Shown here: piece by piece, positions 788 to 40,419 of the stretch
Layout of the letters: each line of letters opens with the position of its first letter
Position numbering within the stretch: the stretch's first letter is position 1
Notes under the pieces: generated by a model
What the model saw: the letters and a program-made list of their open reading frames with translations, nothing else
What the model was told of the DNA's origin: nothing
Databases searched by the model: none
Assembly: GCA_014237365.1 (NCBI GenBank)
Contig: JABZFQ010000263.1
Span: 1 to 51,764 of the forward strand
Length of the DNA: 51,764 nt
Direction of reading: 5' to 3'
Source: Desulfobacteraceae bacterium
GTDB taxonomy: Bacteria; Desulfobacterota; Desulfobacteria; Desulfobacterales; ETH-SRB1
Program-made: the position numbers and the translations under genes

Positions 788-1483
788 GTGACAAATGAAA
801 ACCAAATATCAAACATGATGCTTCGTAGCAATAAATTTGTAAGACGCCACGACCTGTCACCTTCAATACGGTTATATATAGCTTTTACAGCGCTTATGGC
901 CAGAACAAGCGCTACATGGGGAAAAATAACCGAACTGTCACGACAGTTTATGATTTCCCGTATGTTCGTTTATATGCTGGCAAATACTTTACACGAAACA
1001 AGTTTGGCTGTTTTCGGGGATAACGTTTCCAAACCTGCCGTCGTTGATGAACTGCCATATCATTACAAATTGTCCCTGAGGTTGGAGGGTAGATGCAGTA
1101 TTGAAGCAATATCCACGATCATGAAACGCTTAGGAATACCTGTCGCCTCCACAGGATCAATTAGTCAATATTTACAGCAGCTTGGTTTCTTATTGCCATG
1201 TACGCTAACAACCAGCAACAATGAAGTCAAACTCGTTGTTTTTTTAAGTGACGAAATTTTTGCAAAGAATATTCCCATCCTGGTGACTGTTGACCCTATT
1301 AGTTCGGTAATCCTGAGAATAGAGCTGACAGATTCGCGAAAAGTTGAGGACTGGAAAAACCATTGGGAATGTTTGGAAAAAAATGGCTACATTGCAACAT
1401 ACCTGGTCACTGATGAAGGTAGGGGTTTGTGTTCAGCCCAAAAAGAGGCTTTGGCCGATATTATCAGACAACCGGATACTTAG
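788..1483 (+). pseudogene. DDE-type transposase, N-terminal ~230 aa only, cut off by a MITE insertion
   Basis: The 231-aa ORF has acidic motifs (FLSDEIF and LVTDEGRGL) that look like the first two DDE residues. The region for the third residue is absent. The stop codon TAG 1481-1483 is built from the TTA target duplication plus the first G of the MITE. Confidence 0.45.
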
Positions 1484-1633
1484 GAACGTGGACGAACTAA
1501 CTTCCCCAAGTAGTCGCATAGATTTGGGTCGAATTTGTTTGATCTCAGATCACAAAAGTTGATGGAATAGCTTACCTATTTCAATATTTTTGGGATTTGA
1601 GATCAAATAAAGGCGGCCTGAAGCTGTGATGCA
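1483..1633 (+). mobile_element. MITE-A copy 1, lacking the right terminal repeat
   Basis: Starts GGAACGTGGACGAACTAACTTCCCCAAGTAG directly after TTA. Collinear with the full copies up to ...GGCCTGAAGCTGTGATGCA, then homology stops. Confidence 0.85.
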
Positions 1634-1920
1634 CTTTAATTGACGCTATAGGTTTGCCCAAAAAACCTTCGTCAAAAAGTGTAAACTACTTTTATGCCTA
1701 TATGAAGGATGCCAAAAAACATAATAGTTTACCACGAATTTTCATAGAATTACACTGAATTGTCAAAATACTCTTCTCAAGATTGCGAACCATTCGATTT
1801 CGGATTGCAAATTGCGGATTTGTTGTATTGCTTCGCTCTACCATTTTACCACCCAAGTAATTTACTTCATTGTTTACAATTTTCAGTGAATCTCCGTGTC
1901 GTTCTGTTGTAAAATTTTAC

Positions 1921-1959
1921 AAAAAAACAGGGCAAACATTATAAATAATGTTTGCCCTG
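1921..1959 (-). terminator. Rho-independent terminator of the cytochrome c3 gene
   Basis: 13-bp perfect hairpin cagggcaaacatt/aatgtttgccctg, 26 nt after the minus-strand stop. On the minus strand it is followed by a T7 run (A7 at 1921-1927 on the plus strand). Confidence 0.75.
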
Positions 1960-1984
1960 AATTTTAAAATCTGCAGATATTAAA

Positions 1985-2458
1985 TTATTTCTTCTTTTTG
2001 GGATGACACTTTGCACAGGATGTAGGTGCTGATTTCGTGCCGCTTTTCTTATTGGCCACCTTATGACAATCTTTGCAGTTTACATGTATGGCATAGGCAT
2101 GATACGCCATCTTTTCCTTCATTGAAAGCTTGGGTTCGCCTTTTTTAGCCCTTGGAGGTCTACCTGCTTTGGTGTGACACTCAATGCAGTTCTGAACCTC
2201 ATCGCCCATTTTCAGATCATTAAGCGGTTTATTGTCAGCATCATGATGACATTCACCACAGCCTGCTTTGTATTCCTCAGCATGCTTCTTGTGTGAAAAC
2301 TGGACCAAACCCTTTTTATGTTTAGCATAAGCCTTGTTTTCCATATTGACAACATCAGCAATGGTGGTCCCAGCATAAATAGAGCTAGCAAAAAACATGG
2401 AAGCAATTCCTACAACAGCTATAATCAACAAAAATCTTTTGCTCATATATTTTTTCAC
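1985..2458 (-). CDS. Periplasmic tetraheme cytochrome c3 (class III cytochrome c)
   Basis: Signal-peptide-like N-terminus and four CxxCH motifs (CGECH, CIECH, CKDCH, CAKCH) in 157 aa. Lys-rich tail. Confidence 0.85.
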   Translation of the reverse strand: MKKYMSKRFLLIIAVVGIASMFFASSIYAGTTIADVVNMENKAYAKHKKGLVQFSHKKHAEEYKAGCGECHHDADNKPLNDLKMGDEVQNCIECHTKAGRPPRAKKGEPKLSMKEKMAYHAYAIHVNCKDCHKVANKKSGTKSAPTSCAKCHPKKKK

Positions 2459-2567
2459 CTCCTTCCATTCTCGAAATTTATCAAAGATCTAATCTTTTTT
2501 ATATAAATTTCTTTATCAAGTAAAAAGTATTATGTCAAGATAAAGAATATCTGTCAAAAACCAATTA

Positions 2568-2889
2568 GGAACGTGGACGAAATAACTTCCTCAAGTAGGC
2601 GCACAGATTTGGGTCGAATTTGTTTGATCTCAGATCACAAAAGTTGATGGAATAGCAGCGATTCCCGATGGCATGATAACATATTGATTTAACGATGTTT
2701 TTGAAACACTCTTTTCGTAAACCTTTTTGCTGTCAATTCAATAGGTTATCTCAAAACAGAGATTATGGCTTCCTTCGGGAATTGCTGATGGAATAGCTTA
2801 CCTATTTCAATATTTTTGGGATTTGAGATCGAACAAAGGCGGCCTGAAGCTGTGATGCATAGTTGGGGAAGTTATTTCCTCCACGTTCC
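2568..2889 (+). mobile_element. MITE-A copy 2, full length, flanked by TTA/TTA, carrying a nested second MITE
   Basis: Left end GGAACGTGGACGAAATAACTTCC. The right end is the reverse complement of GGAACGTGGAGGAAATAACTTCCCCAA. TTA is present at 2565-2567 and 2890-2892. Length minus the nested insert is ~181 bp. Confidence 0.9.
2657..2785. mobile_element. 129-bp nested MITE-B inside MITE-A copy 2
   Basis: Terminal inverted repeats GCGATTCCCGATGG / CCTTCGGGAATTGC. The host sequence TGATGGAATAGC is duplicated at 2645-2656 and 2786-2797. Other MITE-A copies have this sequence uninterrupted. Confidence 0.8.
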
Positions 2890-3636: not shown

Positions 3637-3970
3637 TTTTCAAAGATCCTTTTGCTGCTTTATTTTTGACATTTTTACCATCATTAGAAGATCTGAAAAC
3701 GCCTTCGGCCGTATTGCTTTTTTGATTAACCTTTATATCAACGGCCTCCTTTATGTTTTCATTCATATCCTCAAAAGTATCTTTAACATCTTTTAAATCA
3801 CTATTTATATCAATTGACTGTTTAAATTCATGTGTAGCTTTCTTGAATTCACCGATTGCTCGGCCAAGTGATTTTGCGAGATCAGGAAGTTTTTTAGGAC
3901 CAATAACAATAAGAGCTACAGCCAAAATTAATAGAACTTCAGGCATACCTATGCCGAACATATTACTCAC
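3629..3970 (-). CDS. Sec-independent (Tat) translocase subunit, TatA/TatB/TatE family
   Basis: MFGIGMPEVLLILAVALIVIGPKKLPDLAKSLGRAIGEFKKA is the family signature. The 113-aa length is more TatB-like. The true start may be the MFGIG Met at 3961. Confidence 0.85.
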   Translation of the reverse strand: MSNMFGIGMPEVLLILAVALIVIGPKKLPDLAKSLGRAIGEFKKATHEFKQSIDINSDLKDVKDTFEDMNENIKEAVDIKVNQKSNTAEGVFRSSNDGKNVKNKAAKGSLKNV

Positions 3971-4047
3971 CTATAACATTTTTTAAATTTGAATTTAGAG
4001 CTGGATCAAAAATAACATCTCATCTTTTCTTACCAAAATCAAGCTAA

Positions 4048-4071
4048 GGAATGGGGACGAAATAACTTTCC
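4048..4071. mobile_element. MITE-A solo terminal-repeat remnant (24 bp) flanked by TAA/TAA
   Basis: GGAATGGGGACGAAATAACTTTCC between TAA 4045-4047 and TAA 4072-4074. The mltA stop codon (complement of 4071-4073) spans the remnant edge. Confidence 0.6.
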
Positions 4072-5264
4072 TAAGGTTTCAGAACAAGAAAGTACAGCTT
4101 TCCCTTATGCTGCATGTGACCTGCCGCTATCTCAGAGTATGTACCGTTTCCCCAGAACAGATCCGCACGGCCAGGCCCGCGTATCGCTCCTCCTGTATCA
4201 TGATTCAGAACAAATCTGCTGAAATTTATCCAATTATGAATTTTTCCATCGTCATTTATTAAAGGTTTTTCTGCTTCTATAAAAGCAAGGGCTGACAAAG
4301 GGAATATTCTTCTGTCCAATGCTATCGACCTGCCAGGCGTCAATTTAACTCCGATACAACCCAAAGGGCCATCTTCTTCTATCTTGAAAAAAACATAGCT
4401 GGGGTTAAAGTTTAAAATAGTTTTGATCTCTTCCGGATGTTCTTTTAAATATGCACGAATTTTTTGCATAGACATTTCTGATCTTTCTATTACCCCTTCT
4501 TCAATAAGCAATTTGCCTATGCTCCGGTATGGACGTCCGTTTGTTATATCATAATGGACATTAATTGTTTTTCCGTTATCAAAATAAATTTTTCCGGAAC
4601 CCTGAATTTGAAGAAAAAAAAGATCAACCTGGTCTTTAATCCAGGCAATTTTTTCTGCATTACCTTTTAGAGCGCCTTTGCATTCTATTTCATCGCGTTC
4701 AAAGTAGGGAACAACTGTCCGGCCGGTATATCTCCCAATTATTCTTTTATTGTTTAAGCGCGGAATAAATAATGAAAGATCAATTGTAGTTAAATCGCAA
4801 GGACGTGCATAAATCGGGAATCTATATTCAGTGCTTTGCTTAAGGCTGCCTTGCAGAACAGGCTCATAATAACCTGTAAAAAGGACATGACCATTCGTGC
4901 CGCCGATCGATTTATAAACAAGATAATTTGATTTAATAAACTTATTAAACTCATCTTTTGATGGCCTGGTCTGTATAAAATTTAGAAAATGCTCCATGGA
5001 CTTGATCATATGGGCAGCATTAAAGCTGTCTTTACCGAATCTGAACTGCCTGGAAAAAGGCAACCTTTTTAGATATGAAATACTCTGCAAAATTCCATTT
5101 TCTAAACTATCGCAGACCATATCATCTGAAAATTCAGGATATCTGCAAGAGGGAATTCTTTGCATTGCAAATTCATCTTTTAAAGGCGGATGTATTTTAA
5201 GAACAGAACATCCGGCTAAAAAAAAGAAACAAAACAGGGCAAAAAAGAATAATGAGTGTTTCAT
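4071..5264 (-). CDS. mltA: Membrane-bound lytic murein transglycosylase A (MltA)
   Basis: Lipoprotein-like N-terminus (LAGCS). GYYEP motif and the C-terminal 3D-domain motif HDTGGAIRGPGRADLFWG. Confidence 0.85.
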   Translation of the reverse strand: MKHSLFFFALFCFFFLAGCSVLKIHPPLKDEFAMQRIPSCRYPEFSDDMVCDSLENGILQSISYLKRLPFSRQFRFGKDSFNAAHMIKSMEHFLNFIQTRPSKDEFNKFIKSNYLVYKSIGGTNGHVLFTGYYEPVLQGSLKQSTEYRFPIYARPCDLTTIDLSLFIPRLNNKRIIGRYTGRTVVPYFERDEIECKGALKGNAEKIAWIKDQVDLFFLQIQGSGKIYFDNGKTINVHYDITNGRPYRSIGKLLIEEGVIERSEMSMQKIRAYLKEHPEEIKTILNFNPSYVFFKIEEDGPLGCIGVKLTPGRSIALDRRIFPLSALAFIEAEKPLINDDGKIHNWINFSRFVLNHDTGGAIRGPGRADLFWGNGTYSEIAAGHMQHKGKLYFLVLKP

Positions 5265-6652: not shown

Positions 6653-6670
6653 TTATACTTCTTTTCTCGT

Positions 6671-7215: not shown

Positions 7216-7239
7216 AAAAAACTCCTTTAACCTAAATTA

Positions 7240-7380: not shown

Positions 7381-7384
7381 CAAC

Positions 7385-7747: not shown

Positions 7748-7755
7748 AGTAAATG

Positions 7756-7860: not shown

Positions 7861-7865
7861 GCAAT

Positions 7866-17231: not shown

Positions 17232-17768
17232 ATGAGCGAATACGATACAATTCTGGATGCATCTGATATAGACCGTATACTTTCAAGAATCACTCATAAA
17301 ATTCTTGAAATACACAAGGGCACTGAGAACCTTACACTTATAGGCATTCATACACGGGGAGTTTATATCGCGAAACATATCCAGTCCATGATTAATGAAA
17401 TTGAAGGAATTGAAATACCGACAGGCAATATTGATATAACTTTGTACCGTGATGACTGGACAAGAATCAGCCACCACCCCATCGTCCAGGCAACAGATAT
17501 ATCCTTTCCTATTGATGGGAAACAAATTATTTTAATAGATGATGTTCTTTTTACAGGTCGAACAATAAGAGCTGCCATGGATGCTATTATTGATTTTGGC
17601 AGGCCTGATCGCATTGAACTTGCGGTGCTTGTTGATAGAGGCCACAGAGAACTTCCAATTCAGGCCAACTATGTTGGAAAATTTATTGAAACAAGGCGCT
17701 CAGAAAGTGTAAATGTTTTGCTCACCGAACATGATGGACAAGACAGGGTTGTCATAGAAAAGCATTGA
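17232..17768 (+). CDS. pyrR: Bifunctional pyrimidine regulatory protein / uracil phosphoribosyltransferase PyrR
   Basis: Start at ATG 17232 (MSEYDTILDASDIDRIL) after GGAGAG. PRPP-binding motif ILIDDVLFTGRTIRAA. DRGHRELPIQANYVGK. Confidence 0.9.
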   Translation: MSEYDTILDASDIDRILSRITHKILEIHKGTENLTLIGIHTRGVYIAKHIQSMINEIEGIEIPTGNIDITLYRDDWTRISHHPIVQATDISFPIDGKQIILIDDVLFTGRTIRAAMDAIIDFGRPDRIELAVLVDRGHRELPIQANYVGKFIETRRSESVNVLLTEHDGQDRVVIEKH

Positions 17769-17785
17769 TATAGACTTTCAGATAA

Positions 17786-17969
17786 GGAACGGAGACGAAA
17801 TAACTTCCCCAACTATGCATCATCATAGCTTCAGGCCACTTTTGCCCGATCTCAAATCACAAAAATATCAAAATAGATAGGCTATTCCATCAACTTTTGT
17901 AATTTGAGATCGAACAAATTTGACCCAAATCTATGCGCCTAATTGGGGAAGTTATTTCGTCCCCGTTCC
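17786..17969 (-). mobile_element. MITE-A copy 4, full length (184 bp), flanked by TAA/TAA
   Basis: Both 27-bp terminal repeats are present. TAA at 17783-17785 and 17970-17972. Reverse orientation relative to copy 2. Confidence 0.9.
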
Positions 17970-18042
17970 TAATTCATTTCACTGCGTTATCAGTCAAAAT
18001 CCTTGTAAAATGAATTATCTGAAAATCTACAGGAAGAGAAAC

Positions 18043-18546
18043 ATGAGCATAATAGAACATAAAAAAAACGCTCCCGGGAAAATCAAACTTGGAATTATAT
18101 CTGTTTCAAGCACTAGATCATTAAAAGATGATAAAAGCGGATTATGGATAAACAATAGAGCCTTAAAAGAAGGGCACAAAGTTGTATTTCATCACATTAT
18201 ACAAGATGAAATACAAGCCATAACCGTGATAATACTTGACGTTATATGCAGTCATGAACCTCAGCTTATATTAATGACAGGGGGAACTGGTATAAGCAGC
18301 AAAGATGTAACTATTGAAGCGGTGATTCCATTATTTGAAAAGGAGCTAACAGCATTCGGGCCACTTTTTGCTCAGCTCAGCTTTGAAAAAATTGATTCCG
18401 CTGCTCTTTTATCACGGGCGACTGCAGGCATAATAAACAAAACAATACTATTTTGTCTGCCTGGCAGCCTTAAAGCATGCAAGCTCGCATGCAAGCATCT
18501 TATCTTTCCTGAATTGGGACATCTTGTTAAGCATGTTCAGGAATAA
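18043..18546 (+). CDS. moaB: Molybdenum cofactor biosynthesis protein B (MoaB/MogA family)
   Basis: Start at ATG 18043 (MSIIEHKK) after AGGAAGAGA. MTGGTGIS motif. The longer tracked ORF (17920) begins inside the MITE. Confidence 0.85.
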   Translation: MSIIEHKKNAPGKIKLGIISVSSTRSLKDDKSGLWINNRALKEGHKVVFHHIIQDEIQAITVIILDVICSHEPQLILMTGGTGISSKDVTIEAVIPLFEKELTAFGPLFAQLSFEKIDSAALLSRATAGIINKTILFCLPGSLKACKLACKHLIFPELGHLVKHVQE

Positions 18547-18717
18547 TTCAAGCGTGAACCCCATATTCTGAAGCCAATTCAAACATTGTTTTCTGACCCT
18601 TTATTGCATCAAGGGCAATTCTCGCCTTCAATTACTTGCTATGTTTTTTTCGGCCAATTCTGTTCCTCCTTTTTCTTGAAAACACACCTTAACACACTGT
18701 CTCATTTTTGGGGTCCA
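18547..18717 (-). mobile_element. IS3-family left-end remnant: terminal TGGACCCC... plus a degraded OrfA N-terminus
   Basis: The minus strand reads TGGACCCCAAAAATGAGACAG..., then AAGGAGG, then a broken frame translating KARIALDAIKGQKTMFELASEYGVH. This is a Transposase_8-type HTH. It is truncated against the moaB stop. Confidence 0.5.
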
Positions 18718-18722
18718 CTATA

Positions 18723-18810
18723 CTATTCCATCCACTTTTGTGATCTGAGATCAAATAAATTCGACCCAAATCTGTGCACCTACTTGGGGAAGTTAATTCG
18801 TCCACGTTCC
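18723..18810 (-). mobile_element. MITE-A copy 5, half copy abutting the IS3 remnant
   Basis: ctattccatccacttttgtgatctgagatc...ggggaagttaattcgtccacgttcc followed by TTA. Confidence 0.8.
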
Positions 18811-19118
18811 TTATATTGAAAACTCAACAAAAACCCAGATTAATATTGACTTAATGGAGTACACTAAGATACAAAAATTAAATTAGCGCACCTTTGGGAT
18901 ATAAAAAAGCCTTGTAAAGTTAAGGAATTCTGCCCATTGTATAAGTTCCTTAACTTTAGGCACTTTCAGCCTATCAAGCCGTCTATCCTATGCTACTGAA
19001 TTCCTTAGACATAACATGAAAATTTCTATGCTATAAATTTATATATTATTAAACCATACTTTCCTTTTTTTGATATACAAAAAAATTCTGAAAAGCCGGG
19101 AAGGAAAATTCATAGATA

Positions 19119-20375: not shown

Positions 20376-20423
20376 AATATTGGTCGAGTGGGAAAATGGT
20401 TGAATGGTTGACTATTCTACTAA

Positions 20424-20576
20424 GGAACGTGGACGAATTAACTTCCGCAAGTAGGCGCACAGATTTGGGTCGAATTTGTTCGATCTCAGATCACAAAAGT
20501 TGAAGGAATAGCTTACCTATTTCAATATTTTTGTGATTTGAGACCGGACAAAGGCGGCCTGAAGCTGTGATGCATA
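20424..20576 (+). mobile_element. MITE-A copy 6, lacking the right terminal repeat
   Basis: TAA then GGAACGTGGACGAATTAACTTCCGCAAGTAGGCGCAC... through ...CTGAAGCTGTGATGCATA. It ends 12 nt before the aspS start. Confidence 0.85.
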
Positions 20577-20588
20577 GGAGTAAATGCA

Positions 20589-22385
20589 TTGTCAGATGAT
20601 ATACTTGGAGAAATGAGGAGAACACACAATTGCTGTGAGCTTGATGCAGCCTCAGTGGGCAAGGAGGTTGTGCTTATGGGATGGGTTCAGCGCCGAAGGG
20701 ACCACGGAGGGGTTATATTTATTGACTTGCGAGACAGGGAGGGCATAACACAGGTTGTTTTTAATCCCGAAAAAAATAAAAATATTCACGAAAAGGCTCA
20801 TGCAATCAGGAATGAATATGTAATCGGTGTGCGTGGAATTGTTGATCCAAGACCTGAAGGAATGACCAATCCGACCCTGAAAACCGGAGAAATAGAAATT
20901 ACGGTCGTTGAACTTAAAATTTTAAATGCAGCTAAAACACCTGCTTTTTTAATCGAAGATAAAATTGATGTGTCGGAAACAGTACGGCTTAAATATCGCC
21001 ATATTGATCTCAGACGCCCACAAATGCAAAAAAATATAATTATGCGTCACAAGGCTGCCGCATCAGTTAGGAACTATCTTGACAAACTCGGATTTCTTGA
21101 AATTGAAACACCTGTATTAACGCGCAGCACCCCTGAAGGCGCAAGAGACTATCTTGTCCCCAGCAGAGTTAATCCTGGCCAGTTTTATGCTCTGCCTCAA
21201 TCACCCCAGCTTTTTAAACAACTTCTAATGATCTCGGGACTTGACCGCTATTTTCAGATAGTTCGCTGCTTCAGAGACGAAGACCTGAGGGCGGACCGCC
21301 AGCCGGAATTTACACAAATAGATATGGAGATGTCCTTTGTCGGCGAAAACGATATCATGGCTATAACTGAAGGCATGATGAAAAAAATTTTTAATGATGT
21401 TCTTGGGATAGAAATCAACCCACCGTTTTTACGTCTTTTATACAAAGATTCGGTCAGCCGCTTCGGCCTTGACAGACCGGATATGCGCTTTGACCTTGAA
21501 CTTAAAGACATATCGGATATTGTTGAAAAATCAGGGTTCAAGGTTTTCTCCAGCGTTGTTAAAAAAGGTGGAATAGTCAAAGCGCTGAATGCAAAAGGCT
21601 GTTCATATTTTTCACGGAAAGAAATCGATGATCTTGCTGAATTTGTTGCAGTATACAGAGCAAAAGGCCTTGCCTGGATAAAAGTTAAGGAAGATACATG
21701 GCAGTCTCCCATAGCAAAATTTTTTACAGACCAGGAAAAAAAAGCTCTATCCAGGCGCCTAGAAATGGAACCCGGCGACCTTGTTTTTTTTGTTGCTGAT
21801 CAACCAAAGGTTACAAATGAAGCTTTGGGGTATCTTAGAAACCATCTCGGAAAAAAGCTAGGCATGATAGATGAAAATGAATTTAGTTTTGTATGGGTTA
21901 CTGATTTCCCTTTGCTTGAATACGATGAAACAGAAAAAAGGCTTCAGGCATTGCATCATCCTTTTACAGCTCCCCTTGAAGAAGATTTAAAACTTTTGAA
22001 AGACGACCCTCTCTCCGCAAGATCCAGGGCTTATGATCTTGTTTTAAATGGGTCAGAGATTGGTGGCGGAAGCATACGTATCCATAAAAAAGACCAACAG
22101 GAAAAGGTGTTTGAAGCATTGAATATGGATAAAAAAACTTATGAAGAAAAATTCGGATTTCTTCTTTCAGCACTTGATTCAGGAGCTCCCCCCCACGGAG
22201 GCATTGCATTCGGCTTTGATAGGCTGGTTATGATTCTTTGTGGACAGCCTTCTATACGTGATGTTATTGCATTTCCTAAAACCCAGAAGGCCGCATGCCT
22301 TCTCACAAATGCACCTGCAGCAACGAGCAAGGCTCAACTCGACGAGCTTTCGTTAAAATTAAAAGGAGATTTTGCAATTTCCTAA
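20589..22385 (+). CDS. aspS: Aspartate--tRNA ligase
   Basis: 598 aa. RTHNCCEL N-terminus, FRDEDLRADRQPEFTQID, GGGSIRIH, APPHGGIAFGFDR. TTG start with AGGAG 8 nt upstream, partly supplied by the MITE edge. Alternative ATG at 20613. Confidence 0.93.
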   Translation: MSDDILGEMRRTHNCCELDAASVGKEVVLMGWVQRRRDHGGVIFIDLRDREGITQVVFNPEKNKNIHEKAHAIRNEYVIGVRGIVDPRPEGMTNPTLKTGEIEITVVELKILNAAKTPAFLIEDKIDVSETVRLKYRHIDLRRPQMQKNIIMRHKAAASVRNYLDKLGFLEIETPVLTRSTPEGARDYLVPSRVNPGQFYALPQSPQLFKQLLMISGLDRYFQIVRCFRDEDLRADRQPEFTQIDMEMSFVGENDIMAITEGMMKKIFNDVLGIEINPPFLRLLYKDSVSRFGLDRPDMRFDLELKDISDIVEKSGFKVFSSVVKKGGIVKALNAKGCSYFSRKEIDDLAEFVAVYRAKGLAWIKVKEDTWQSPIAKFFTDQEKKALSRRLEMEPGDLVFFVADQPKVTNEALGYLRNHLGKKLGMIDENEFSFVWVTDFPLLEYDETEKRLQALHHPFTAPLEEDLKLLKDDPLSARSRAYDLVLNGSEIGGGSIRIHKKDQQEKVFEALNMDKKTYEEKFGFLLSALDSGAPPHGGIAFGFDRLVMILCGQPSIRDVIAFPKTQKAACLLTNAPAATSKAQLDELSLKLKGDFAIS

Positions 22386-22452
22386 AAAGATAAATATTTT
22401 ACTTGACTTCAACTAAATTTTTAGTAGATTATTAAGTTTTATATATAAATTA

Positions 22453-22528
22453 TCCCCAGTAGCTCAGTTGGCAGAGCGAGTGGCTGTTAACCACTAAGTC
22501 CGCGGTTCGAGTCCGTGCTGGGGAGCCA
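22453..22528 (+). tRNA. tRNA-Asn (anticodon GTT)
   Basis: Acceptor TCCCCAG/CTGGGGA, D-arm AGCTCAGTTGGCAGAGC, anticodon loop CTGTTAA, T-arm GGTTCGAGTCC, encoded CCA. Confidence 0.9.
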
Positions 22529-22537
22529 AACAAATAA

Positions 22538-22571
22538 AGGGGTTAGCCAAATCAGGTTAATTCCTTTTTTA
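22538..22571 (+). terminator. Rho-independent terminator after tRNA-Asn
   Basis: Stem aggggttagcc / ggttaattcct (11 pairs including G-U) followed by a T run. Confidence 0.55.
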
Positions 22572-22794
22572 GTTTGTGTGAAAAATTATGTGAGAAAAAT
22601 TTATTTCGCATGATTTGGTAGTCCCAACAAAACAGTGCAGGTGATTAAAAAGTATCTCTAAAAATATGAATAAAAAAGATTTTTGCTAAAAAATTAAGAT
22701 TGTTATAGACTAAAAGGAATATATTTTGTATGAGCATGGTTAAAACTCTATTCAAAGGAACGCAACCATGCAAAATCCAGCAAATACAGCCTTA

Positions 22795-22910
22795 GGAACG
22801 TGGACGAAATAACTTCCCCAACTATGCATCACAGATTCAGGCCACCTTTGCCCGATCTCAAATCACAAAAATATTGAAATAGCTAACTATTCCATCAACT
22901 TTTGTGATCT
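22795..22910 (-). mobile_element. MITE-A copy 7, truncated
   Basis: TTA then GGAACGTGGACGAAATAACTTCCCCAACTATGCATCA... through ...CAACTTTTGTGATCT. Confidence 0.85.
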
Positions 22911-22944
22911 GCACCCCCCATCACTAATCTCAACTAAAACTCAG

Positions 22945-22986
22945 GGTGGTAAATTTTCGGTTAGCACAGGTGGTAAATTTTCGGTT
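22945..22986 (+). repeat. Two 18-bp direct repeats (GGTGGTAAATTTTCGGTT) with 24-bp period
   Basis: Exact copies at 22945-22962 and 22969-22986, between the MITE fragment and the recD2 stop. Confidence 0.8.
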
Positions 22987-23017
22987 GTCACTTCTAGCAA
23001 ACACCAGGTTCTGCAAT

Positions 23018-25821: not shown

Positions 25822-25830
25822 CTCCCCCTA

Positions 25831-25914
25831 TAATCCCTAATCCCTAATCCCTAATCCCCTAAATCCCTAAATCCCTAATCCCTGCCCTTAATCTGCCCTT
25901 AATCTGCCCTTACT
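25831..25914. repeat. Tandem repeat block: (TAATCCC)4, (TAAATCCC)2, TAATCCC, then (CTGCCCTTAAT)3
   Basis: Read directly from the sequence. On the minus (sense) strand it is (GGGATTA)n with at least 8 G3 tracts. The last 11-mer overlaps the rlpA stop. Confidence 0.9.
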
Positions 25915-26665: not shown

Positions 26666-26675
26666 TTGGCTACTT

Positions 26676-29532: not shown

Positions 29533-29600
29533 GGAACGTGGACGAATTAACTTCCCCAAATCTGTGCGCCTACTTGGGGAAGTTAATTCGTCCACGTTCC
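29533..29600. mobile_element. MITE-A copy 8: 68-bp internally deleted derivative forming a perfect 26-bp-stem hairpin
   Basis: GGAACGTGGACGAATTAACTTCCCCA, 16 nt, TGGGGAAGTTAATTCGTCCACGTTCC. TTA on the left and TTT on the right. Confidence 0.85.
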
Positions 29601-29697: not shown

Positions 29698-30861
29698 ATG
29701 CCGTATTGCACAAATATGATTAAAGGCCCCAAGGATTCATTCAAATTCATAATCGGTTCTCAGTATTTTTTATATTTTGGCATTATGGGCATTTCTTTGC
29801 CCTATTTTAATTTATACTGTTATCATCTTGATTTTACCGGTTTTCAAATAGGACTCCTGTCTGCATTTAGAACGGTGATGATAGTTTTGTTCCCTTTATT
29901 TTGGGGGGCCCTGGCAGACCACTTTCAGATCAGGAGACCGATATATATTTTATGCAATTTTGTGAGCACCGGGATATGGGCATTTTATTTATATTTCACT
30001 GATTTCTGGTTAATGCTGGTTATTACCGTGTTGTACGGAATTTTTTACGCTCCCATTATATCTTTTCTTGAAGCCTTTACTATGGATGTACTGGGCAAAG
30101 AGAAAAAAAGTTATGGGAAGATTAGAGCATGGGGATCAATTTCCTTTATCGTTATTGTAATAGTCATCGGCAGTATAATTGATATTTTTTCAATTGAGAT
30201 TATTATTGCTGTAATTCTTGCCGGCTCCCTGCTTCAGGCATTTATTTCTTTTAGAATCCCCGATGTTGTCATTTCAAAGAAGGAGTCTTTTACTCCTAAG
30301 ACAAAAGTTCTATTAAAAAGGCGTGTAGCCGTCTTCCTGTTTTGCGCTTTTTTAATGCTTGTAAGCCATGGAACCTACTATGCTTTTTTTTCCATCCATT
30401 TAGACAGCCTTGGCTATGGTAAAACATTTATCGGATTTGCCTGGGCTATGGCGTCGATTGCAGAAATACTTGTAATGATAAACTCAGACAAAATATTCAA
30501 GCGTTTTTCCCTAGAAAATGTTCTGGTATTTTCATTTATGATAGCAACATTAAGATGGTTAATACTTTTCTTTGTAAAATCTCCGGTTTTAATCCTGATA
30601 TCACAGATTTTTCATGCCATCACATATGGTGCATTTCATATAGCAAGTATATTGTATATTGATTTGCTAACTCCTGATGAAGCCAAAACTCTGGGACAGG
30701 CAGCAAATAATGCTGTAACTTACGGCCTGGGGATGACGGTTGGATTTCTCTTTAACGGCTATTTATATGAAAGTGTGGGCTTGTTTAATTTGTTTATAAT
30801 AAGCAGTCTTATTGCACTGTCTGGAGGTGTGATTTTTAAATTAGGAACACGGACGAAATAA
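29698..30861 (+). CDS. MFS transporter (12-TM, MFS_1_like type)
   Basis: 387 aa, hydrophobic throughout. The last 5 codons and the stop (GTRTK*) lie inside MITE-A copy 9. Confidence 0.75.
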   Translation: MPYCTNMIKGPKDSFKFIIGSQYFLYFGIMGISLPYFNLYCYHLDFTGFQIGLLSAFRTVMIVLFPLFWGALADHFQIRRPIYILCNFVSTGIWAFYLYFTDFWLMLVITVLYGIFYAPIISFLEAFTMDVLGKEKKSYGKIRAWGSISFIVIVIVIGSIIDIFSIEIIIAVILAGSLLQAFISFRIPDVVISKKESFTPKTKVLLKRRVAVFLFCAFLMLVSHGTYYAFFSIHLDSLGYGKTFIGFAWAMASIAEILVMINSDKIFKRFSLENVLVFSFMIATLRWLILFFVKSPVLILISQIFHAITYGAFHIASILYIDLLTPDEAKTLGQAANNAVTYGLGMTVGFLFNGYLYESVGLFNLFIISSLIALSGGVIFKLGTRTK

Positions 30862-30987
30862 CTTCCCCAAGCAGGCGCATAGATTTGGGTCAGATTTGTT
30901 TTATCTTAAATCACAAAAGTTGATAGAATAGCAAGCTATTTTGATATTTTTGGGATTTAAAATCGGGCAAAGATGGCCTGAAGTTGT
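30844..30987 (+). mobile_element. MITE-A copy 9, diverged, lacking the right terminal repeat
   Basis: TTA then GGAACACGGACGAAATAACTTCCCCAAGCAGGCGCATAGATTTGGGTCAG... through ...GGCCTGAAGTTGT. Confidence 0.8.
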
Positions 30988-31065: not shown

Positions 31066-32691
31066 ATGCACAAGAAATTTCCACATCTTTTTGAGCCATT
31101 TAAGCTTGGTTCTGTTCGTTTAAAAAACAGAATTACCATGTCACCTCTTTTTACTGCTTCTGCCCACAAAAACGGAACTGTCAGCTCGTTGACACTGGAG
31201 CATTACAAAGAAATAGCAGAGGGCGGGGCGGGCATGATTGTAGTTGCAAATGCCATTGTTGATAAAAGCGGATCTGTATCAAAATATTCTATCAGGGTTG
31301 ATGATAACAGATTCCTGCAGGGTCTTTCCAGGCTTGCTGATACTATAAAAAAAGAGGATGCAGCGGCAGTGCTCCAGATTAATCATGGAGGATATTTTGC
31401 ACAGGGGAAAAAGACATTTTCTCCATCCTCTGTTTCCTTGAGCGATTTAAATTTAGGAGGACTGTATAAAACAGCTCTTAAATCACTTGATTTTCAGCAG
31501 CAGATAGCTGTGTTGTCAGAAGCTATACAACAACACCCTAAAAGACCAAAGAAAATGACTGAAGATGATATTAAGTACATAGTCTCAGCCTATGCTCAGG
31601 CGGCTGCACGTGCAAAAAAAGCAGGTTTTGATATGGTGGAAATTCATGGCGCAACCGGATATCTGCCTGTTCAGTTTTTATCGCCCAGAATAAACAACCG
31701 AAAAGATCAATACGGCGGTAATCTGGAGAACCGTATGCGTTTTCCTCTTGAACTTACACAAGCCGTAATGGATGCTGTTGGTTCTGATTTTCCTGTTGGA
31801 TACAGGTTTCTTGCTGAGGAATGGATAGAAGAAGGATTTTTATTGAATGAAGCAAAAATTTTTGCCCAAAGACTTTCCGCACTTAATATTGCTTATCTTT
31901 CTGTAACAGGCGGAACCTATGAATCCTTTTCCCTACCTGAAGTCAAAGAGAAATCACACGGACCAGGTTATATGGTTTATCTTGCCGGAAATATAAAAGA
32001 GGTGGTTGATGTGCCTGTAATTACTACCGGTCGTATTACTGCTCCACAGTTAGCCGAAGAGATTCTTAGTGAAAAAAAAGCGGATATTATCGGTCTTGCC
32101 CGCCCTTTGTTTGTAGATCCTAAGTGGCCAAAGAAGGCATATGAAGGTAAAGATGAAGACATAGTTCCATGTAAAAACTGCGGGGCTTGTTTCCAGCTTG
32201 TGGTATCGGATCGGCCTGCTCTCTGTACTCAGTGGGGCAAGTCAAAATTAATAAACAGAAAAAATATGATAAAAGAAATACATAATCCCCGCAAGAAAAT
32301 TTTGATTGCAATGGATGGATCGGAAAATGCCACCATGGCGGCTGCTTATACAGCAGACATGTTGGCGAACCGCACTGATGTTAGCATTACCCTTTTTCAT
32401 ATTAAAACCAATGAATCAATCAAAGACGAAAGTGGAATAAAGGAGATGATGGATATTGCGCGATCAATTTTGATAAAGGCAGGTATCCCTGAAAAGTCGA
32501 TCAATATTCAGATTCGACAAAAAAAGGCCGGTATGGGTAACGACATATTGAATGAAATAGTAGAGGCCGGCTATGGTACTGTTGTAGTAGGGCGACGAGG
32601 TGTTTCGATAGCAAATCAGCTTTTGTTTGGAAGCGTGTCAAACAAAATTGTTCAAAATACGAAAGATTGCACTGTGTGGGTAGTTGAATGA
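31066..32691 (+). CDS. Old-Yellow-Enzyme-type FMN oxidoreductase (2,4-dienoyl-CoA-reductase-like N-domain with Cys cluster) fused to a C-terminal universal stress protein domain
   Basis: LFEPFKLGSVRLKNRITMSP, INHGG, VEIHGATGYL, Cys motif CKNCGACF...C, then USP (ILIAMDGSE...VVVGRRGVS...LLFGSVSNKIVQ). Confidence 0.8.
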   Translation: MHKKFPHLFEPFKLGSVRLKNRITMSPLFTASAHKNGTVSSLTLEHYKEIAEGGAGMIVVANAIVDKSGSVSKYSIRVDDNRFLQGLSRLADTIKKEDAAAVLQINHGGYFAQGKKTFSPSSVSLSDLNLGGLYKTALKSLDFQQQIAVLSEAIQQHPKRPKKMTEDDIKYIVSAYAQAAARAKKAGFDMVEIHGATGYLPVQFLSPRINNRKDQYGGNLENRMRFPLELTQAVMDAVGSDFPVGYRFLAEEWIEEGFLLNEAKIFAQRLSALNIAYLSVTGGTYESFSLPEVKEKSHGPGYMVYLAGNIKEVVDVPVITTGRITAPQLAEEILSEKKADIIGLARPLFVDPKWPKKAYEGKDEDIVPCKNCGACFQLVVSDRPALCTQWGKSKLINRKNMIKEIHNPRKKILIAMDGSENATMAAAYTADMLANRTDVSITLFHIKTNESIKDESGIKEMMDIARSILIKAGIPEKSINIQIRQKKAGMGNDILNEIVEAGYGTVVVGRRGVSIANQLLFGSVSNKIVQNTKDCTVWVVE

Positions 32692-32714
32692 GTTCATCAG
32701 TTGCCCATAGAAAA
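32614..32714 (+). repeat. Left copy of the ~100-bp direct repeat bracketing the CRISPR-Cas island
   Basis: Aligns with 46685-46784 with 7 substitutions and 1 indel (counted by eye). Covers the last 24 codons and stop of the OYE-USP gene plus the first 6 codons of the FAD-oxidoreductase frame. Confidence 0.9.
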
Positions 32715-32778
32715 GGGCGCATAATGCCGGCAAGATATAAGATCTCACCCCACCGATACGATGGTAGAAGGAGATATT

Positions 32779-35841: not shown

Positions 35842-35853
35842 AAAGATATTATT

Positions 35854-37251: not shown

Positions 37252-37272
37252 CCAATGCGTTCAGGAGAGACT

Positions 37273-38331: not shown

Positions 38332-38378
38332 TTTTAAATTTAAAATATTAAATACATGATTTATTATGAGGACATATT

Positions 38379-39176
38379 TTGCGTATTATAATAACTGCTA
38401 CAAGTGAACAGCCATCTTTTTTCCCATACAATTATCAGTACGCGGTACATTCAGCTATATACTCTCTAATGAATGAGTCTTCGGCTGAATATTCAGAATT
38501 TTTACATGATAATGGTTATATAAAAGATGGAATTAATAAAAAATTCAAATTTTTCACCTTCTCGAAACTTAAATTTTTTCCAAAAAAAAGAGATAGAAAA
38601 GGTTTTTATAATGTGAAAAAGATTCAGTTTGTATTTACTTCTTCTATGGATGAAAGCCTCAAACATTTAATATTAGGCATTTTTTCCAATCAAAAAATTA
38701 AATTAATATTAAATGGGCAAAAATGTGTTTTTACTATAGTTAATGTAGATATACAACCGGAACCAATCTTTAGCAATCGTGAAAAATTTATTTGTCTCTC
38801 ACCAATAGCTGTTACAACAATAAAGATCGACGAAAATGGGAAACGGAAGCAGCATTTCCTGAATTATATGATCCCAGAAGAAAGAGATCGTTTTGTTGAT
38901 AATCTTAAAAAAAATCTGATCAGGAAGTATGAAACGATTAATAATATTAAATATCAAAATTTAAACGATCACTTTAACTTTAATTTCGATATTTATTACA
39001 TAACAAAACGAAAAGGTAATATTTCAAAGTTAATGGAGTTTAAAAATAGAATTAAAATAAAAGCTATGGAGGCTCCTTTCAGCATTGAAGCTGATTCGGA
39101 ATTAATAAAGCTCGGTTACGAATGTGGCTGGGGTGAAAAAAATAGCGCTGGTTTTGGTTGTGTTGAACAAATTTAA
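38379..39176 (+). CDS. cas6: Cas6 crRNA endoribonuclease
   Basis: TTG start after GAGGA. The N-terminal PYNYQYAVHSAIY motif and the C-terminal Gly-rich loop GWGEKNSAGFGCV are typical of Cas6. Confidence 0.8.
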   Translation: MRIIITATSEQPSFFPYNYQYAVHSAIYSLMNESSAEYSEFLHDNGYIKDGINKKFKFFTFSKLKFFPKKRDRKGFYNVKKIQFVFTSSMDESLKHLILGIFSNQKIKLILNGQKCVFTIVNVDIQPEPIFSNREKFICLSPIAVTTIKIDENGKRKQHFLNYMIPEERDRFVDNLKKNLIRKYETINNIKYQNLNDHFNFNFDIYYITKRKGNISKLMEFKNRIKIKAMEAPFSIEADSELIKLGYECGWGEKNSAGFGCVEQI

Positions 39177-39730
39177 ATATCTTGGCCTGAATATAAAAAT
39201 TTGTTTTTTGATCAACAATAAATATTTTTTTGATCAATCAATATCAATTTAATTATATGATTGCAAAAAACAAATACGTATTCAATTCCCTTTCGACAAA
39301 ACAAAGCCACCCTTTTTGTTAAAGGTAAAATATAACAAAAGGTAACAATTATTATGGAAAGAATTATTAAAAAAATATAAATCAAGAGCAAAGAGATTTT
39401 TTAAAGGCTCTTGCTGATAAAGAAATTGAAATATTTACATTTTCAGACACAGAACGAAAAACAGGGGAATTATCCATCCTTATTCTGATATTTTATATAT
39501 TTTATCAAGCCATTTTGTTTTATTAGCAATTGTTAAATTTGGCAGCCAGAGCCTGTAAGCTCTGTTCTATTGGCGGGATGAGATAATTCCGTATTCTTGT
39601 TTGGAGACAAGTTTTGTTCGTTGATTTTAAGGAAGCATTTGACAACACTATCAGCAATTTTGAGGGTTAATTGTCCGATATGTTTTAGTTTTGTCTTAAC
39701 GTGTGATTGGCCGGAGGGAGAGAATTAATT

Positions 39731-40279
39731 ATGGAAAATGAAGTAAAACAACAAGAGCAGATAAAACTGCCACAGGAGTTTCAGTCTCTTATCGCCGGTT
39801 TTTTTCCTAACACAAAATATTTTGACAGCCGGTTTGATCTTTTACAGGTTCAAATTGATGAATCAAGAAGAAACCAGGAACAGATCAAGGATCAGCTTAG
39901 GGATTTTAAGGGCGATACTGATAAGCGCTTTGAGCAGGCCAAAGATCAGCTTAAGGATTTTAAGGGCGATGCTGATAAGCGCTTTGAGCAGGTGGATAAG
40001 CATTTTGAGCAGGTGGATAAGCGTTTTGAGCAGGTGGATAAGCGTTTTGAGCAGATGGATAAGCGTTTTGAGCAGGTGGATAAGCGTTTTGAGCAGGTGG
40101 ATCACAGGTTTCAGCGGCTTGAAGACAAAATAGACAATCTCATTGAACGTATTGATGTTAAGGTTGATAGCGGCTTAAAAGAAAACCGGAATCTGACTGT
40201 AAGACTTTTTACCTTTGCCCTCTCTTTTTCTCTTGTTGCTGTAGTTGGGATGTTTGGAAAACTTTTTGGGTTGTTTTAG
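39731..40279 (+). CDS. Tail-anchored coiled-coil protein with DKRFEQV heptad tandem repeats
   Basis: Two 18-aa repeats (KDQL[RK]DFKGD[TA]DKRFEQ[AV]). Six to seven DKRFEQV heptads. C-terminal hydrophobic helix LFTFALSFSLVAVVGMFGKLFGLF. Confidence 0.7.
   Translation: MENEVKQQEQIKLPQEFQSLIAGFFPNTKYFDSRFDLLQVQIDESRRNQEQIKDQLRDFKGDTDKRFEQAKDQLKDFKGDADKRFEQVDKHFEQVDKRFEQVDKRFEQMDKRFEQVDKRFEQVDHRFQRLEDKIDNLIERIDVKVDSGLKENRNLTVRLFTFALSFSLVAVVGMFGKLFGLF
39887..40120 (+). repeat. In-frame tandem repeats: 2 x 54 bp then 6-7 x 21 bp
   Basis: 21-bp units GATAAGCGTTTTGAGCAGGTG start at 39974, 39995, 40016, 40037, 40058 and 40079, with a degenerate unit at 40100. Confidence 0.9.
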
Positions 40280-40306
40280 GCGCTGGTAGGAAAAAATTAT
40301 TAGTTA

Positions 40307-40419
40307 GGAACGTGGACGAAATAACTTCCCCAAGTAGGCGCACAGATTTGGGTCGAATTTGTTTGATCTCAGATCACAAAAGTTGATGGAATAGCTTACC
40401 TATTTCAATATTTTTGGGA
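40307..40419 (+). mobile_element. MITE-A copy 10, truncated after ~113 bp
   Basis: TTA then GGAACGTGGACGAAATAACTTCCCCAAGTAGGCGCACAG... through ...CAATATTTTTGGGA. Confidence 0.85.

Follow-up and report, generated by a model that had tools for sequence, protein, structure and literature searches.

A palindromic MITE family from Eth-SRB1 and related Desulfobacterales shares its ends with ISAzo13-family insertion sequences

Introduction

A stretch of 51,764 nucleotides from a Desulfobacteraceae bacterium (hereafter the window, meaning that whole stretch) carries many short, similar repeats next to T(T/A)A trinucleotides. This raises the question as to what these repeats are, which transposase moved them, and whether they have become anything more than selfish DNA. 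The initial annotation regarded them as non-autonomous relatives of an IS5-family element. As set out below, we consider it likely (probability roughly 0.88) that they are ~180-bp palindromic MITE copies and remnants mobilised in trans by an ISAzo13-family DDE transposase.

Results and discussion

Copy number and form of the MITE family

With up to three mismatches allowed, the 27-nt terminal repeat GGAACGTGGACGAAATAACTTCCCCAA has 12 matches at 10 sites in the window, where shuffled sequences lead one to expect 0.00, in agreement with the 27-bp terminal inverted repeats (TIRs) described initially. The ten sites of this GGAAC-type family were placed by BLASTN and by a profile search, the profile being built from 30 full-length relatives; with nhmmer at E ≤ 10, no 11th site was found in the window. 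Each location given in the initial annotation was thus recovered by repeat scan, BLASTN and nhmmer, and its count of at least 11 sites becomes 10. The copies, and one insert nested within a copy, are as follows.

1483..1633, + strand: one-ended copy with the left TIR (1483-1509) and body to consensus position ~150, without the right TIR; the TTA at its intact end supplies the stop codon of ORF 788-1483
2568..2889, + strand: two-ended copy, TIRs 2568-2594 and 2863-2889, target-site duplication (TSD) TTA/TTA; the right TTA (2890-2892), read on the minus strand, serves as the TAA stop of tatC; a foreign insert splits the hairpin centre
2657..2786, no strand assigned: the nested insert, 130 bp, of a different MITE family and not of the GGAAC family; ends AGCGATTCCCGATGG and AGCAATTCCCGAAGG, flanking direct repeat GATGGAATAGC
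4048..4074, + strand: degenerate solo TIR GGAATGGGGACGAAATAACTTTCCTAA, flank TAA, nhmmer E 0.0045; the mltA stop codon falls within it
17786..17969, - strand: intact 184-bp copy, TSD TAA/TAA, its target being the TAA of another small palindromic element (~17771-18029); its TIR at 17943-17969 matches that of an autonomous element in metagenome locus L111 at 27 of 27 positions
18723..18810, - strand: consensus 1-88, just the left half, with the break at the hairpin centre; intact end toward hisS, flank TTA on the + strand
20424..20577, + strand: one-ended copy between hisS and aspS, flank TAA, without the right TIR
22795..22911, - strand: right part only (consensus ~64-180), flank TTA, intact end toward tRNA-Asn and aspS
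29533..29600, - strand: 68-bp internally deleted copy with both TIRs, upstream of hsp20; flanks TTA/TTT, junction at the short repeat TTGGG
30844..30987, + strand: one-ended copy, flank TTA; its TIR forms the final five codons and stop of an MFS transporter gene (GTRTK and stop), and synteny with locus L059 stops at its left boundary
40307..40419, + strand: one-ended copy in the cas operon (consensus 1-113), flank TTA; the truncation point adjoins a 57-nt repeat that recurs at 39610-39666

Both ends are kept in three of the ten copies (17786-17969, 2568-2889 and 29533-29600), the other seven being one-ended remnants. The consensus is 180 nt, short and without coding capacity, and the copies span 27 to 192 bp if the nested insert is left out. 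Two copies had been called full: that at 17786-17969 is indeed intact, and that at 2568-2889 turns out to be a 192-bp member enlarged by the 130-bp foreign insert. The end type of this insert is present in one locus (L104) and absent from a near-identical one (L108), with a TSD of ~10 bp. Across the window and the fetched loci we count 61 two-ended elements with 27-bp TIRs, 7 of them in Planctomycetota loci. The family is therefore what one would generally call a MITE, being short and non-coding, with TIRs, a target duplication, dispersed and variable copies, and an autonomous element that shares its ends. Its description as non-autonomous also holds, as these are TIR-bounded, multi-copy elements and tblastn detected no ISAzo13 homologue in the window.

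Target-site duplication

Trinucleotides at the ends of a palindromic element could be a target duplication or simply an extension of the inverted repeat. We therefore tabulated the flanks of 54 two-ended copies from the window and related Desulfobacterales MAGs. These comprise 23 TTA/TTA, 19 TAA/TAA, 1 ATA/ATA and 1 TAT/TAT, so that 44 of the 54 have identical 3-bp flanks; three are discordant TTA/TAA pairs, and the remaining seven have otherwise mismatched, cut or degenerate flanks. The concordance of TTA and TAA flanks (42 of 45) departs strongly from an even expectation (binomial p ~4e-10). Since concordant pairs dominate, with only three discordant, the MITE makes a real 3-bp TWA target duplication and the flanks are not an inverted-repeat extension. 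This bears out the T(T/A)A duplication proposed initially. The accompanying statement that every left end is preceded by TTA or TAA can be extended to the intact ends in general, with the exception of the copy at 29533-29600, which reads TTA/TTT.

Coding elements with the same ends

The partner transposase was sought in a filtered metagenome scan for coding elements with the 27-bp ends. An identical 1620-bp element occurs in two loci (L111, 2273-3892, and L122), with GGAACGGGGACGAAATAACTTCCCCAA at both ends and TTA/TTA flanks. Its 418-aa ORF matches the NCBIfam model NF033519 'ISAzo13 family transposase' (E 1.5e-143, 478.5 bits, cutoff 200) and Pfam PF07592 (E 1.1e-107, 360 bits, cutoff 26.9). 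Two further loci (L112 and L124) hold a 1623-bp frameshifted copy that is 91% identical to the L111-type element, again flanked by TTA/TTA, and one end of which is identical to the window consensus at 27 of 27 positions. Elements that share this end type and have TWA flanks (TTA/TTA or TAA/TAA) also contain transposase homologues of 70-91% identity (L149-L151), one of them in a Desulfobacteraceae MAG. The IS and the MITE co-occur in the same metagenomes, a co-occurrence at the level of the metagenome and not of a single genome. An autonomous element with the same ends, of the kind that the initial annotation proposed to look for, is found in these four metagenome loci. Only the 27-29 terminal bases are common to IS and MITE, so that simple deletion within the IS copies found would not have produced the MITE.

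Several other searches gave candidates that we rejected. A plain TIR scan of GTDB genomes returned only MITEs and their remnants, and the 'large' TIR pairs that might have been autonomous elements proved to be ordinary genes next to MITE remnants: the pair in L053 flanks a C-N hydrolase and that in L082 a PlsB-like acyltransferase. BLASTN against plasmids yielded a single match, on the Desulfosarcina sp. BuS5 plasmid NZ_CP087953, where the TIR pair flanks a DUF1638 gene and the annotation of the ~106 kb inspected lists neither an IS5 nor an ISAzo13 gene. Among viral contigs, two stretches matched the TIR; L091, the one inspected, seems to match by chance.

Under the IS5 assignment made initially, the MITE would derive from an IS5-family element with a 3-bp TNA duplication, which among known subgroups would be of IS1031/IS427 type. 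Some IS5 subgroups could indeed account for a 3-bp TWA duplication, and the first 18 bases of the MITE resemble the ends of E. coli IS5: of 15 aligned IS5 positions 14 match, with two gaps. However, the local alignment score of 19 was reached by 80 of 2000 shuffles (p ~0.04), a tblastn search of the window and all fetched loci gave no match to the IS5 transposase InsH, and the sole coding elements found between these ends are of the ISAzo13 family. The duplication is equally typical of ISAzo13 and its eukaryotic relative Zator, for which 3-bp TSDs are reported (PMC10045372), those of Zator-1 being TAA or TTA; it is therefore non-discriminating. Taken together, an IS5 origin appears very improbable. 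Nor does the ORF at 788-1483, suggested initially as a truncated transposase and possible partner, fill that role, as it lies outside the MITE copy that adjoins it. It has no significant transposase-family match (sub-threshold matches only, IS481 at E 0.016 and rve at E 0.089) and does not share the ends, with no GGAAC-type repeat upstream.

Judging from the sequence comparisons, an ISAzo13-type transposase probably mobilises the MITE. It would recognise the 27-bp TIRs, excise the element and insert it at T(T/A)A, and the insertion would duplicate those 3 bp. The source genome presumably holds, or recently held, a copy of the partner IS.

Truncations, gene ends and age of the copies

How did so many copies lose an end? 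At the 20424 copy, the missing right TIR coincides exactly with the loss from the window of a 39-bp host spacer (TTACAGAGCTG...TTTTGAAAG) that relatives keep. One-ended copies probably arose by deletions with a starting point inside the element, either at the hairpin centre or close to it or slightly inward of one TIR, and an endpoint in the flanking DNA, which would leave the copies immobile. The suggestion of recombination or deletion at one-sided truncations is in line with the seven one-ended sites and with this spacer loss. Copies lie repeatedly at gene 3' ends or replace them, because the target TAA can be a stop codon and the TIR has an in-frame TAA; affected here are the tatC stop, the MFS transporter C-terminus and the mltA stop.

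The loss of an end at seven of ten sites could also mean that the copies are fossils, none of them mobile any more, in a lineage that has lost the partner IS. A tblastn search with ISAzo13 finds no transposase gene in the 51.8 kb, no intact ISAzo13-type IS was found among 89 genome stretches carrying the family or on any contig demonstrably from the source organism, and all that survives in one Eth-SRB1 MAG (L015) is 66 bp of IS-specific right-end sequence. On the other hand, the left arms of the copies at 2568, 40307, 1483 and 20424 are 95-99% identical, which suggests recent spread, and short-read MAGs break at repeats, making a missing IS weak evidence. We therefore regard loss of the partner, with all copies now immobile, as possible but less likely than not.

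Distribution among genomes

The family is far from confined to the window: it is carried by at least 89 stretches of GTDB genomes, mostly SEEP-SRB1, Eth-SRB1 and other Desulfobacterales MAGs. Only two of the ten sites in the window could be compared with relatives, which at these sites show 87-90% nucleotide identity (10-13% divergence). The copy between hisS and aspS (20424) is absent from relatives L152-L157, the closest HisS being 93% identical, and the copy upstream of hsp20 (29533) is absent from the orthologous spacer of an Eth-SRB1 MAG (L041). A filled/empty pair at >98% identity was not found for the GGAAC family, the polymorphisms seen belonging to other MITE families. Many short-read contigs end within a MITE copy.

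Arm covariation and maintenance of the hairpin

As the initial annotation recognised, the body is largely self-complementary. It forms a long imperfect palindrome, and the 180-nt consensus folds as a single hairpin (-63.2 kcal/mol with DNA parameters, z = -16 versus shuffles). Changes on both sides affect 16 of 65 pairs, against 4.9 in shuffles; none of 500 shuffles reaches 16, and slid controls give at most 5 pairs. Since the two arms covary, the hairpin is maintained. In the consensus, all nine transition differences between the arms (9 of 9) are G:T wobbles on one strand and none is A:C, and the arm differences in 30 copies comprise 253 of G:T type versus 33 of A:C type.

These data could suggest that the hairpin is, besides being selfish DNA, selected as one single-stranded form, either a DNA hairpin or an RNA stem-loop in transcripts that would influence how mRNA is processed or how stable it is, in the manner of Correia or ERIC elements. 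Covariation well above the controls and the G:T bias would fit, as would the location of copies inside operons (e.g. hisS-aspS and the cas operon) and the finding that, of 19 copies between co-directional ORFs, 14 have the G:T strand as the sense strand. However, the first 27 pairs are expected to covary anyway, as both ends must fit one transposase, and the 9:0 asymmetry, a legacy of a single founder that might stem from strand-biased C-to-T mutation in it, is not seen in other subfamilies. The orientation bias is not significant (p ~0.06, from crude ORF calls and loci that may be non-independent), and among the window copies no preferred orientation with respect to adjacent genes is evident. 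No Rfam family matches the MITE (tRNA-Asn is the sole Rfam match), and the single stretch scanned for promoter- and terminator-like sites, 17600-23000 with four copies, has no excess of them. Selection for a single-stranded form thus seems unlikely. Its consequence, that hairpins kept on one strand as RNA or ssDNA gave the syntrophic sulfate reducers, with their hundreds of copies, dispersed, transcript-embedded stem-loops that shape operon expression, is doubtful as well.

A still bolder variant would have the MITE exchanged between consortium partners. Near-identical copies do occur on contigs binned as Methanosarcinaceae, Methanococcoides and Promethearchaeota, and these might reflect such exchange and not binning errors. 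The 'Methanosarcinaceae' contig (L026) encodes a glycosyltransferase whose sole named close homologue is from an Anaerolineae bacterium.

Significance and comparison with known systems

Among the papers that could be searched, none describes a MITE family tied to ISAzo13, and a literal text search found no match to the TIR sequence. The family appears to be an undescribed one for the little-studied ISAzo13 group; the MITE itself is selfish DNA of an ordinary kind, if abundant, and its family assignment is corrected here. One practical message is that TWA duplications in bacteria should not be assigned to IS5 by default, as ISAzo13 and Zator leave the same signature. The MITE is abundant in SEEP-SRB1, Eth-SRB1 and other Desulfobacterales that are partners in anaerobic alkane oxidation, where it fragments short-read assemblies of the carrier genomes, rewrites gene 3' ends and marks deletion and rearrangement junctions. 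With 27-bp ends and a TWA target, it also offers a compact substrate for experimental work on the ISAzo13 transposase.

Among known systems, ISAzo13-family IS (PF07592 'Rhodopirellula transposase DDE domain'; NF033519) come closest: they have 27-bp TIRs identical to those of the window MITE, a 3-bp duplication and ends that begin with GG. The full-length relatives are family members by curated thresholds and measure 1.6-1.8 kb with one ORF, whereas the MITE is ~180 bp, non-coding and palindromic throughout, with only the terminal 27-29 bp in common. ISAzo13 is the prokaryotic counterpart of eukaryotic Zator, in the IS630/Tc1-mariner-related group, a link that we take from the literature only. 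This related transposase superfamily is reported to have 3-bp TAA or TTA TSDs as in the window, and the non-autonomous copies of Zator-1 are palindromic with long TIRs like our MITE, although the latter is bacterial.

In general form, the MITE resembles Correia (Neisseria), Nezha (Anabaena/Nostoc) and Chunjie (Geobacter), which are likewise small and non-coding, with TIRs and a TSD, a stable predicted hairpin and an intergenic or gene-end location. They differ from it in transposase partner and target, Correia elements duplicating TA. Bacterial MITEs are known to fuse with host ORF ends (PMC3184786), as the window MITE does. Finally, some subgroups of the IS5 family and PIF-Harbinger also duplicate 3 bp of TWA type, and the first 18 bases of the MITE loosely recall IS5 ends, but the partner transposase of the window MITE is not of that family.

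Copies of the family in the window

The family is a ~180-bp hairpin MITE with 27-bp terminal inverted repeats. BLASTN with the two copies originally described as full, combined with inspection of each site and its flanks, defined ten sites, which are listed below.

Copies of the MITE family in the window
1483-1633, 151 bp, without the right end
2568-2889, 322 bp, both ends present, with a 130-bp foreign insert
4048-4074, 27 bp, degenerate solo end
17786-17969, 184 bp, intact
18723-18810, 88 bp, left half only
20424-20577, 154 bp, without the right end
22795-22911, 117 bp, right part only
29533-29600, 68 bp, internal deletion, both ends present
30844-30987, 144 bp, without the right end
40307-40419, 113 bp, without the right part

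A profile HMM built on 30 full-length relatives recovers the same ten sites and no others at E≤10, so that the "at least 11 sites" of the initial annotation is a slight overcount; the 27-nt repeat on its own does match 12 times at ≤3 mismatches, as opposed to 0 in dinucleotide-preserving shuffles. The ten sites add up to 1368 bp and occupy 2.6% of the window, with one site every 5.2 kb. Copies are densely spaced, and it is notable that 7 of the 10 are one-ended remnants. As for the two copies described as full, 17786-17969 is indeed intact, but 2568-2889 qualifies only in having both ends: it is a normal family member split centrally by the insert at 2657-2786, which is bounded by inverted ends of its own and flanked by an 11-bp direct repeat.

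Target duplication

Because TTA and TAA are reverse complements, the concordance of left and right flanks is informative. If the flank were part of the inverted repeat, a left TTA would be paired with a right TAA, whereas a duplication puts identical words at the two ends. In 54 two-ended copies, taken from the window and Desulfobacterales loci, the flanks are TTA/TTA in 23, TAA/TAA in 19, ATA/ATA in one and TAT/TAT in one; three are discordant TTA/TAA pairs, and seven are otherwise mismatched, cut or degenerate. Thus 42 of 45 TTA or TAA pairs are concordant (binomial p ~4e-10 vs. an even expectation), confirming the proposed T(T/A)A duplication. At one orthologous site, locus L081 reads TAA-[MITE]-TAA and locus L089 reads TAA-[different MITE]-TAA-[30-bp remnant]-TAA, as would result if elements had inserted one after another at a duplicated TAA.

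A probable coding partner of the ISAzo13 family

No transposase gene adjoins any of the ~160 ends in the genome stretches. We therefore scanned metagenomes with a pattern in which the terminal repeat is extended by IUPAC "not" codes barring the bases that come next in the MITE arms, a filter validated on loci already fetched. Four of the 52 stretches returned contain full-length elements. Metagenome contigs L111 (2273-3892) and L122 carry an identical 1620-bp element with GGAACGGGGACGAAATAACTTCCCCAA at each end, TTA/TTA flanks and one intact ORF, and L112 and L124 carry a 1623-bp frameshifted copy, 91% identical to the L111 element and also flanked by TTA/TTA. One end of the frameshifted copy matches the originally derived consensus, which is the terminal repeat at 22795 and 40307, at 27/27 positions; the other IS end type is 27/27 identical to 17943-17969. 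An intact coding element with the same ends, for which the initial annotation proposed a search, is thus present in metagenomes.

The 418-aa product of the IS belongs to NCBIfam NF033519, "ISAzo13 family transposase", with E 1.5e-143 and 478 bits against a cutoff of 200, and covers the whole of Pfam PF07592, DDE_Tnp_ISAZ013 (E 1.1e-107). It has at least 7798 homologues at E≤1e-50. Three homologues with DNA (91%, 70% and 70% identity) each lie in a 1.65-1.78-kb element with the same end type, flanked by TAA/TTA (91%), TAA/TAA (70%) and, for the 70% homologue labelled Desulfobacteraceae, TTA/TTA. Published work treats ISAzo13 as what corresponds in prokaryotes to eukaryotic Zator (PMC5718144); both are reported to make 3-bp duplications (PMC10045372), and Zator-1 insertions are flanked by TAA or TTA (PMC12905397). 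IS and MITE have only the terminal 27-29 bases in common and differ in their subterminal sequences. The Eth-SRB1 MAG locus L015 retains 66 bp that are specific to the right end of the IS. The window itself encodes no ISAzo13 homologue.

These data overturn the IS5-family origin put forward initially. The resemblance of the ends to those of E. coli IS5 is matched by 4% of shuffles, and tblastn with IS5 InsH gave no match in the window or the fetched loci. The ORF at 788-1483, initially taken for a truncated transposase, matches no family significantly and is not preceded by such a repeat. It encodes 231 aa, lies outside copy 1483 and is truncated by it, ending exactly at the TTA|G junction. Its similarity to HTH and rve/IS481-type domains stays below threshold; the ORF may be a remnant of an unclassified transposase, or another gene.

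Distribution in other genomes

The element is not confined to the window: an exact-pattern scan of GTDB, with one genome per species, returned at least 89 stretches, nearly all, among the matches listed, from SEEP-SRB1, Eth-SRB1, Desulfobacterales, Desulfocapsa or Thermodesulfobacteriota MAGs. Many contigs stop within a copy, as expected of a repeat that breaks short-read assemblies. A separate Planctomycetota group (Isosphaeraceae, Planctomycetaceae; L006, L032, L037, L042, L049, L051 and L056) has almost the same terminal sequence, GGAACGCTGACGAAATAACTTCCC, around unrelated 98-380-bp bodies. Such ends are strongly conserved between phyla, and their occurrence in Planctomycetota is in line with the Pfam family having its origin in a "Rhodopirellula transposase".

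The 61 two-ended elements extracted have a modal length of 180 bp (21 copies), with shorter classes of 66-68, 101-108 and 120 bp. Judged by eye, the junctions in the 66-68 and 101-108 bp classes fall at short direct repeats common to both arms, e.g. TTGGG and GATTTG. A recurrent ~30-bp remnant (GGAACGTGGACGAAATAACTTCCACGTTCC and variants) fuses ~23-25 nt from one of the terminal repeats with the final 5-7 nt of its counterpart, with matching TTA or TAA still on both sides in most copies (L038, L071, L077, L089, L103, L109, L115, L133 and L141; e.g. L089:7170-7199). It could be either a slippage deletion of the palindrome or a specific excision product.

Near-consensus copies also occur on contigs binned as archaea (L026:322-501, Methanosarcinaceae; L034:107-286, Methanococcoides; L046:2994-, Promethearchaeota), for which mis-binning from SRB-archaea consortia is the simplest reading. 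In a homology search with a glycosyltransferase encoded on L026, the only named relative was from an Anaerolineae bacterium. On a Desulfosarcina sp. BuS5 plasmid (NZ_CP087953, 101276-102178; L090:5001-5903), a terminal repeat and a diverged opposite end surround a single DUF1638 gene, and in locus L053 a C-N hydrolase gene has a solo end upstream of it and, where the gene ends at 3', a degenerate copy of 154 bp. Such bracketing is probably due to chance in a MITE-dense genome, but could be passenger-gene capture.

Signs of mobility and deletion at the copies

In relatives, the hisS-aspS-tRNA-Asn blocks (89-90% identical) have no family member between hisS and aspS; the spacer is 29 bp in L157 and contains a different small palindromic element in L152-L156. 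Aligned with L152, the window spacer is conserved as far as the TAA where copy 20424 starts, and beyond this truncated copy it picks up 39 bp further along, so loss of the right repeat also took host DNA. The 68-bp copy upstream of hsp20 is absent from the Eth-SRB1 locus L041. The MFS protein ends in ...YFSNE* in the CSMAG_533 MAG locus L059 and in ...KLGTRTK* in the window, where the final residues and stop come from the terminal repeat of copy 30844 and synteny with L059 ends. In the cas operon, copy 40307 stops where a 57-nt repeat starts, a second copy of which lies at 39610. The intact ends of half copies 18723-18810 and 22795-22911 both face the hisS-aspS-tRNA block, which in relatives has a different upstream neighbour, panB; since synteny is lost at 19101 and 22530, ~270-290 bp inward of the half copies, we claim no causal link.

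Breakpoints form two clusters, one at or near the hairpin centre (consensus ~64, 88 and 113, with the nested insertion at 89) and one just inside the right repeat (144, 151 and 154). Truncation may have proceeded through instability of the long palindrome, and through abortive one-ended cleavage followed by resection. The initial suggestion of recombination or deletion is supported for many of the one-sided copies.

The hairpin

In keeping with the self-complementarity first noted, the consensus folds as a single stem of ~85 pairs, and 97.6% of cells pair in a set of 30 full-length copies drawn from many genomes. Pairs changed on both sides number 16/65, compared with 4.9 ± 1.4 in shuffles (0/500 reach 16) and ≤5 for slid partners. 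Covariation in the first 27 pairs, e.g. GTG/CAC vs. GGG/CCC variants, would arise in any case, since a single transposase has to recognise both ends, but the body covaries too (7/19 pairs of helix 2). Moreover, the consensus arm transitions are all G:T on one strand (9/9, with 0 A:C; 253 vs. 33 over the 30 copies), and this is the sense strand in 14 of 19 cases between co-directional ORFs (p ~0.06). Constraint at the RNA or ssDNA level is a lead suggested by these features, although other subfamilies are without the G:T asymmetry, and Rfam and a simple promoter/terminator scan of 17600-23000 contribute nothing towards an RNA-level role. The asymmetry could equally well stem from a strand-biased mutation history of the founder copy.

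Genomic setting and neighbouring elements

The window, with 39% G+C, represents ordinary chromosomal DNA of a Desulfobacterales-type organism. Among the genes on it are class III cytochrome c, tatA, tatC, mltA, rmuC, moaC/moaE-type genes, a TonB-dependent receptor, two-component and c-di-GMP signalling proteins, a phosphoribosyltransferase-domain gene, hisS, aspS, tRNA-Asn, recD2, lon, hsp20, an MFS transporter, an OYE-Usp fusion and a type I CRISPR-Cas locus that includes a long array. Of the sequences fetched, those nearest to the window are L041 (87-89% nucleotide identity) and other Desulfobacterales MAGs; exact look-ups of window proteins gave no hit, and the best HisS relative among 5.8 billion proteins is 93% identical. 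A non-coding stretch of ~250 nt (364-610), with no Rfam match, is 78% conserved with L059:6513-6763, 1.2 kb downstream of the MFS orthologue there; in the window the MFS gene is 29 kb away. Two neighbouring runs of CCCTAAT/CCCTAAA-type heptamers (25825-25883) separate a HAD hydrolase gene from a DPBB_1-SPOR (lytic transglycosylase-like) gene.

Several MITE families occur in these genomes, inserting beside or inside each other. The insert in copy 2568 belongs to a second family (ends AGCRATTCCCG..., target duplication ~10-11 bp), present at L104:3933-4149 and absent at L108:~4039 in metagenome contigs >98% identical. A ~160-bp element with ends ACCTAARTTGAGCG and a TAG duplication is present in L101 (516-676) and L104 and absent from L099 and L108. 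A palindromic element with ends CAGACTTTCAGATAATTCATTTCAC (~17771-18029) hosts copy 17786, and fills the hisS-aspS spacer in relatives (L152:3425-3545).

The 14-kb CRISPR-Cas locus and array are bounded by a ~100-nt direct repeat (32610-32715 and 46680-46785; 92% identical), comprising the final ~80 nt of the OYE-Usp gene and ~25 nt downstream. This resembles an att-like duplication that an island insertion might leave; the ORFs ≥80 aa scanned between the repeats include no integrase. The array (43890-46690) has >40 units with a 30-nt repeat, CTTTTAATCAGACCAGAATGGAATTGAAAC, spacers of 35-37 nt and a degenerate final repeat. In the region 39177-41950, two extra genes interrupt the cas operon between cas6 and cas4. 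One, with seven 21-nt tandem repeats (39953-40141), encodes a coiled-coil protein and the other a Schlafen AlbA_2 + HATPase_c_4 protein; a copy of the 57-nt repeat (39610-39666, 40419-40475) stands before each gene, and MITE copy 40307 lies between them.

Comparison with known elements

By every criterion testable in sequence, the window element is a MITE of the ISAzo13 family, because it combines shared ends, a 3-bp TWA duplication and no coding capacity; mobilisation by an ISAzo13 transposase is predicted. It is not an IS5 derivative. Our literature search found no paper linking ISAzo13 to a MITE family, and ISAzo13 itself was rarely mentioned there, the one paper that names both treating MITEs only in general terms. 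In its behaviour the family is like other bacterial MITEs, which are known for stop-codon insertion, ORF-end fusions, nested insertions and deletion derivatives (PMC3184786).
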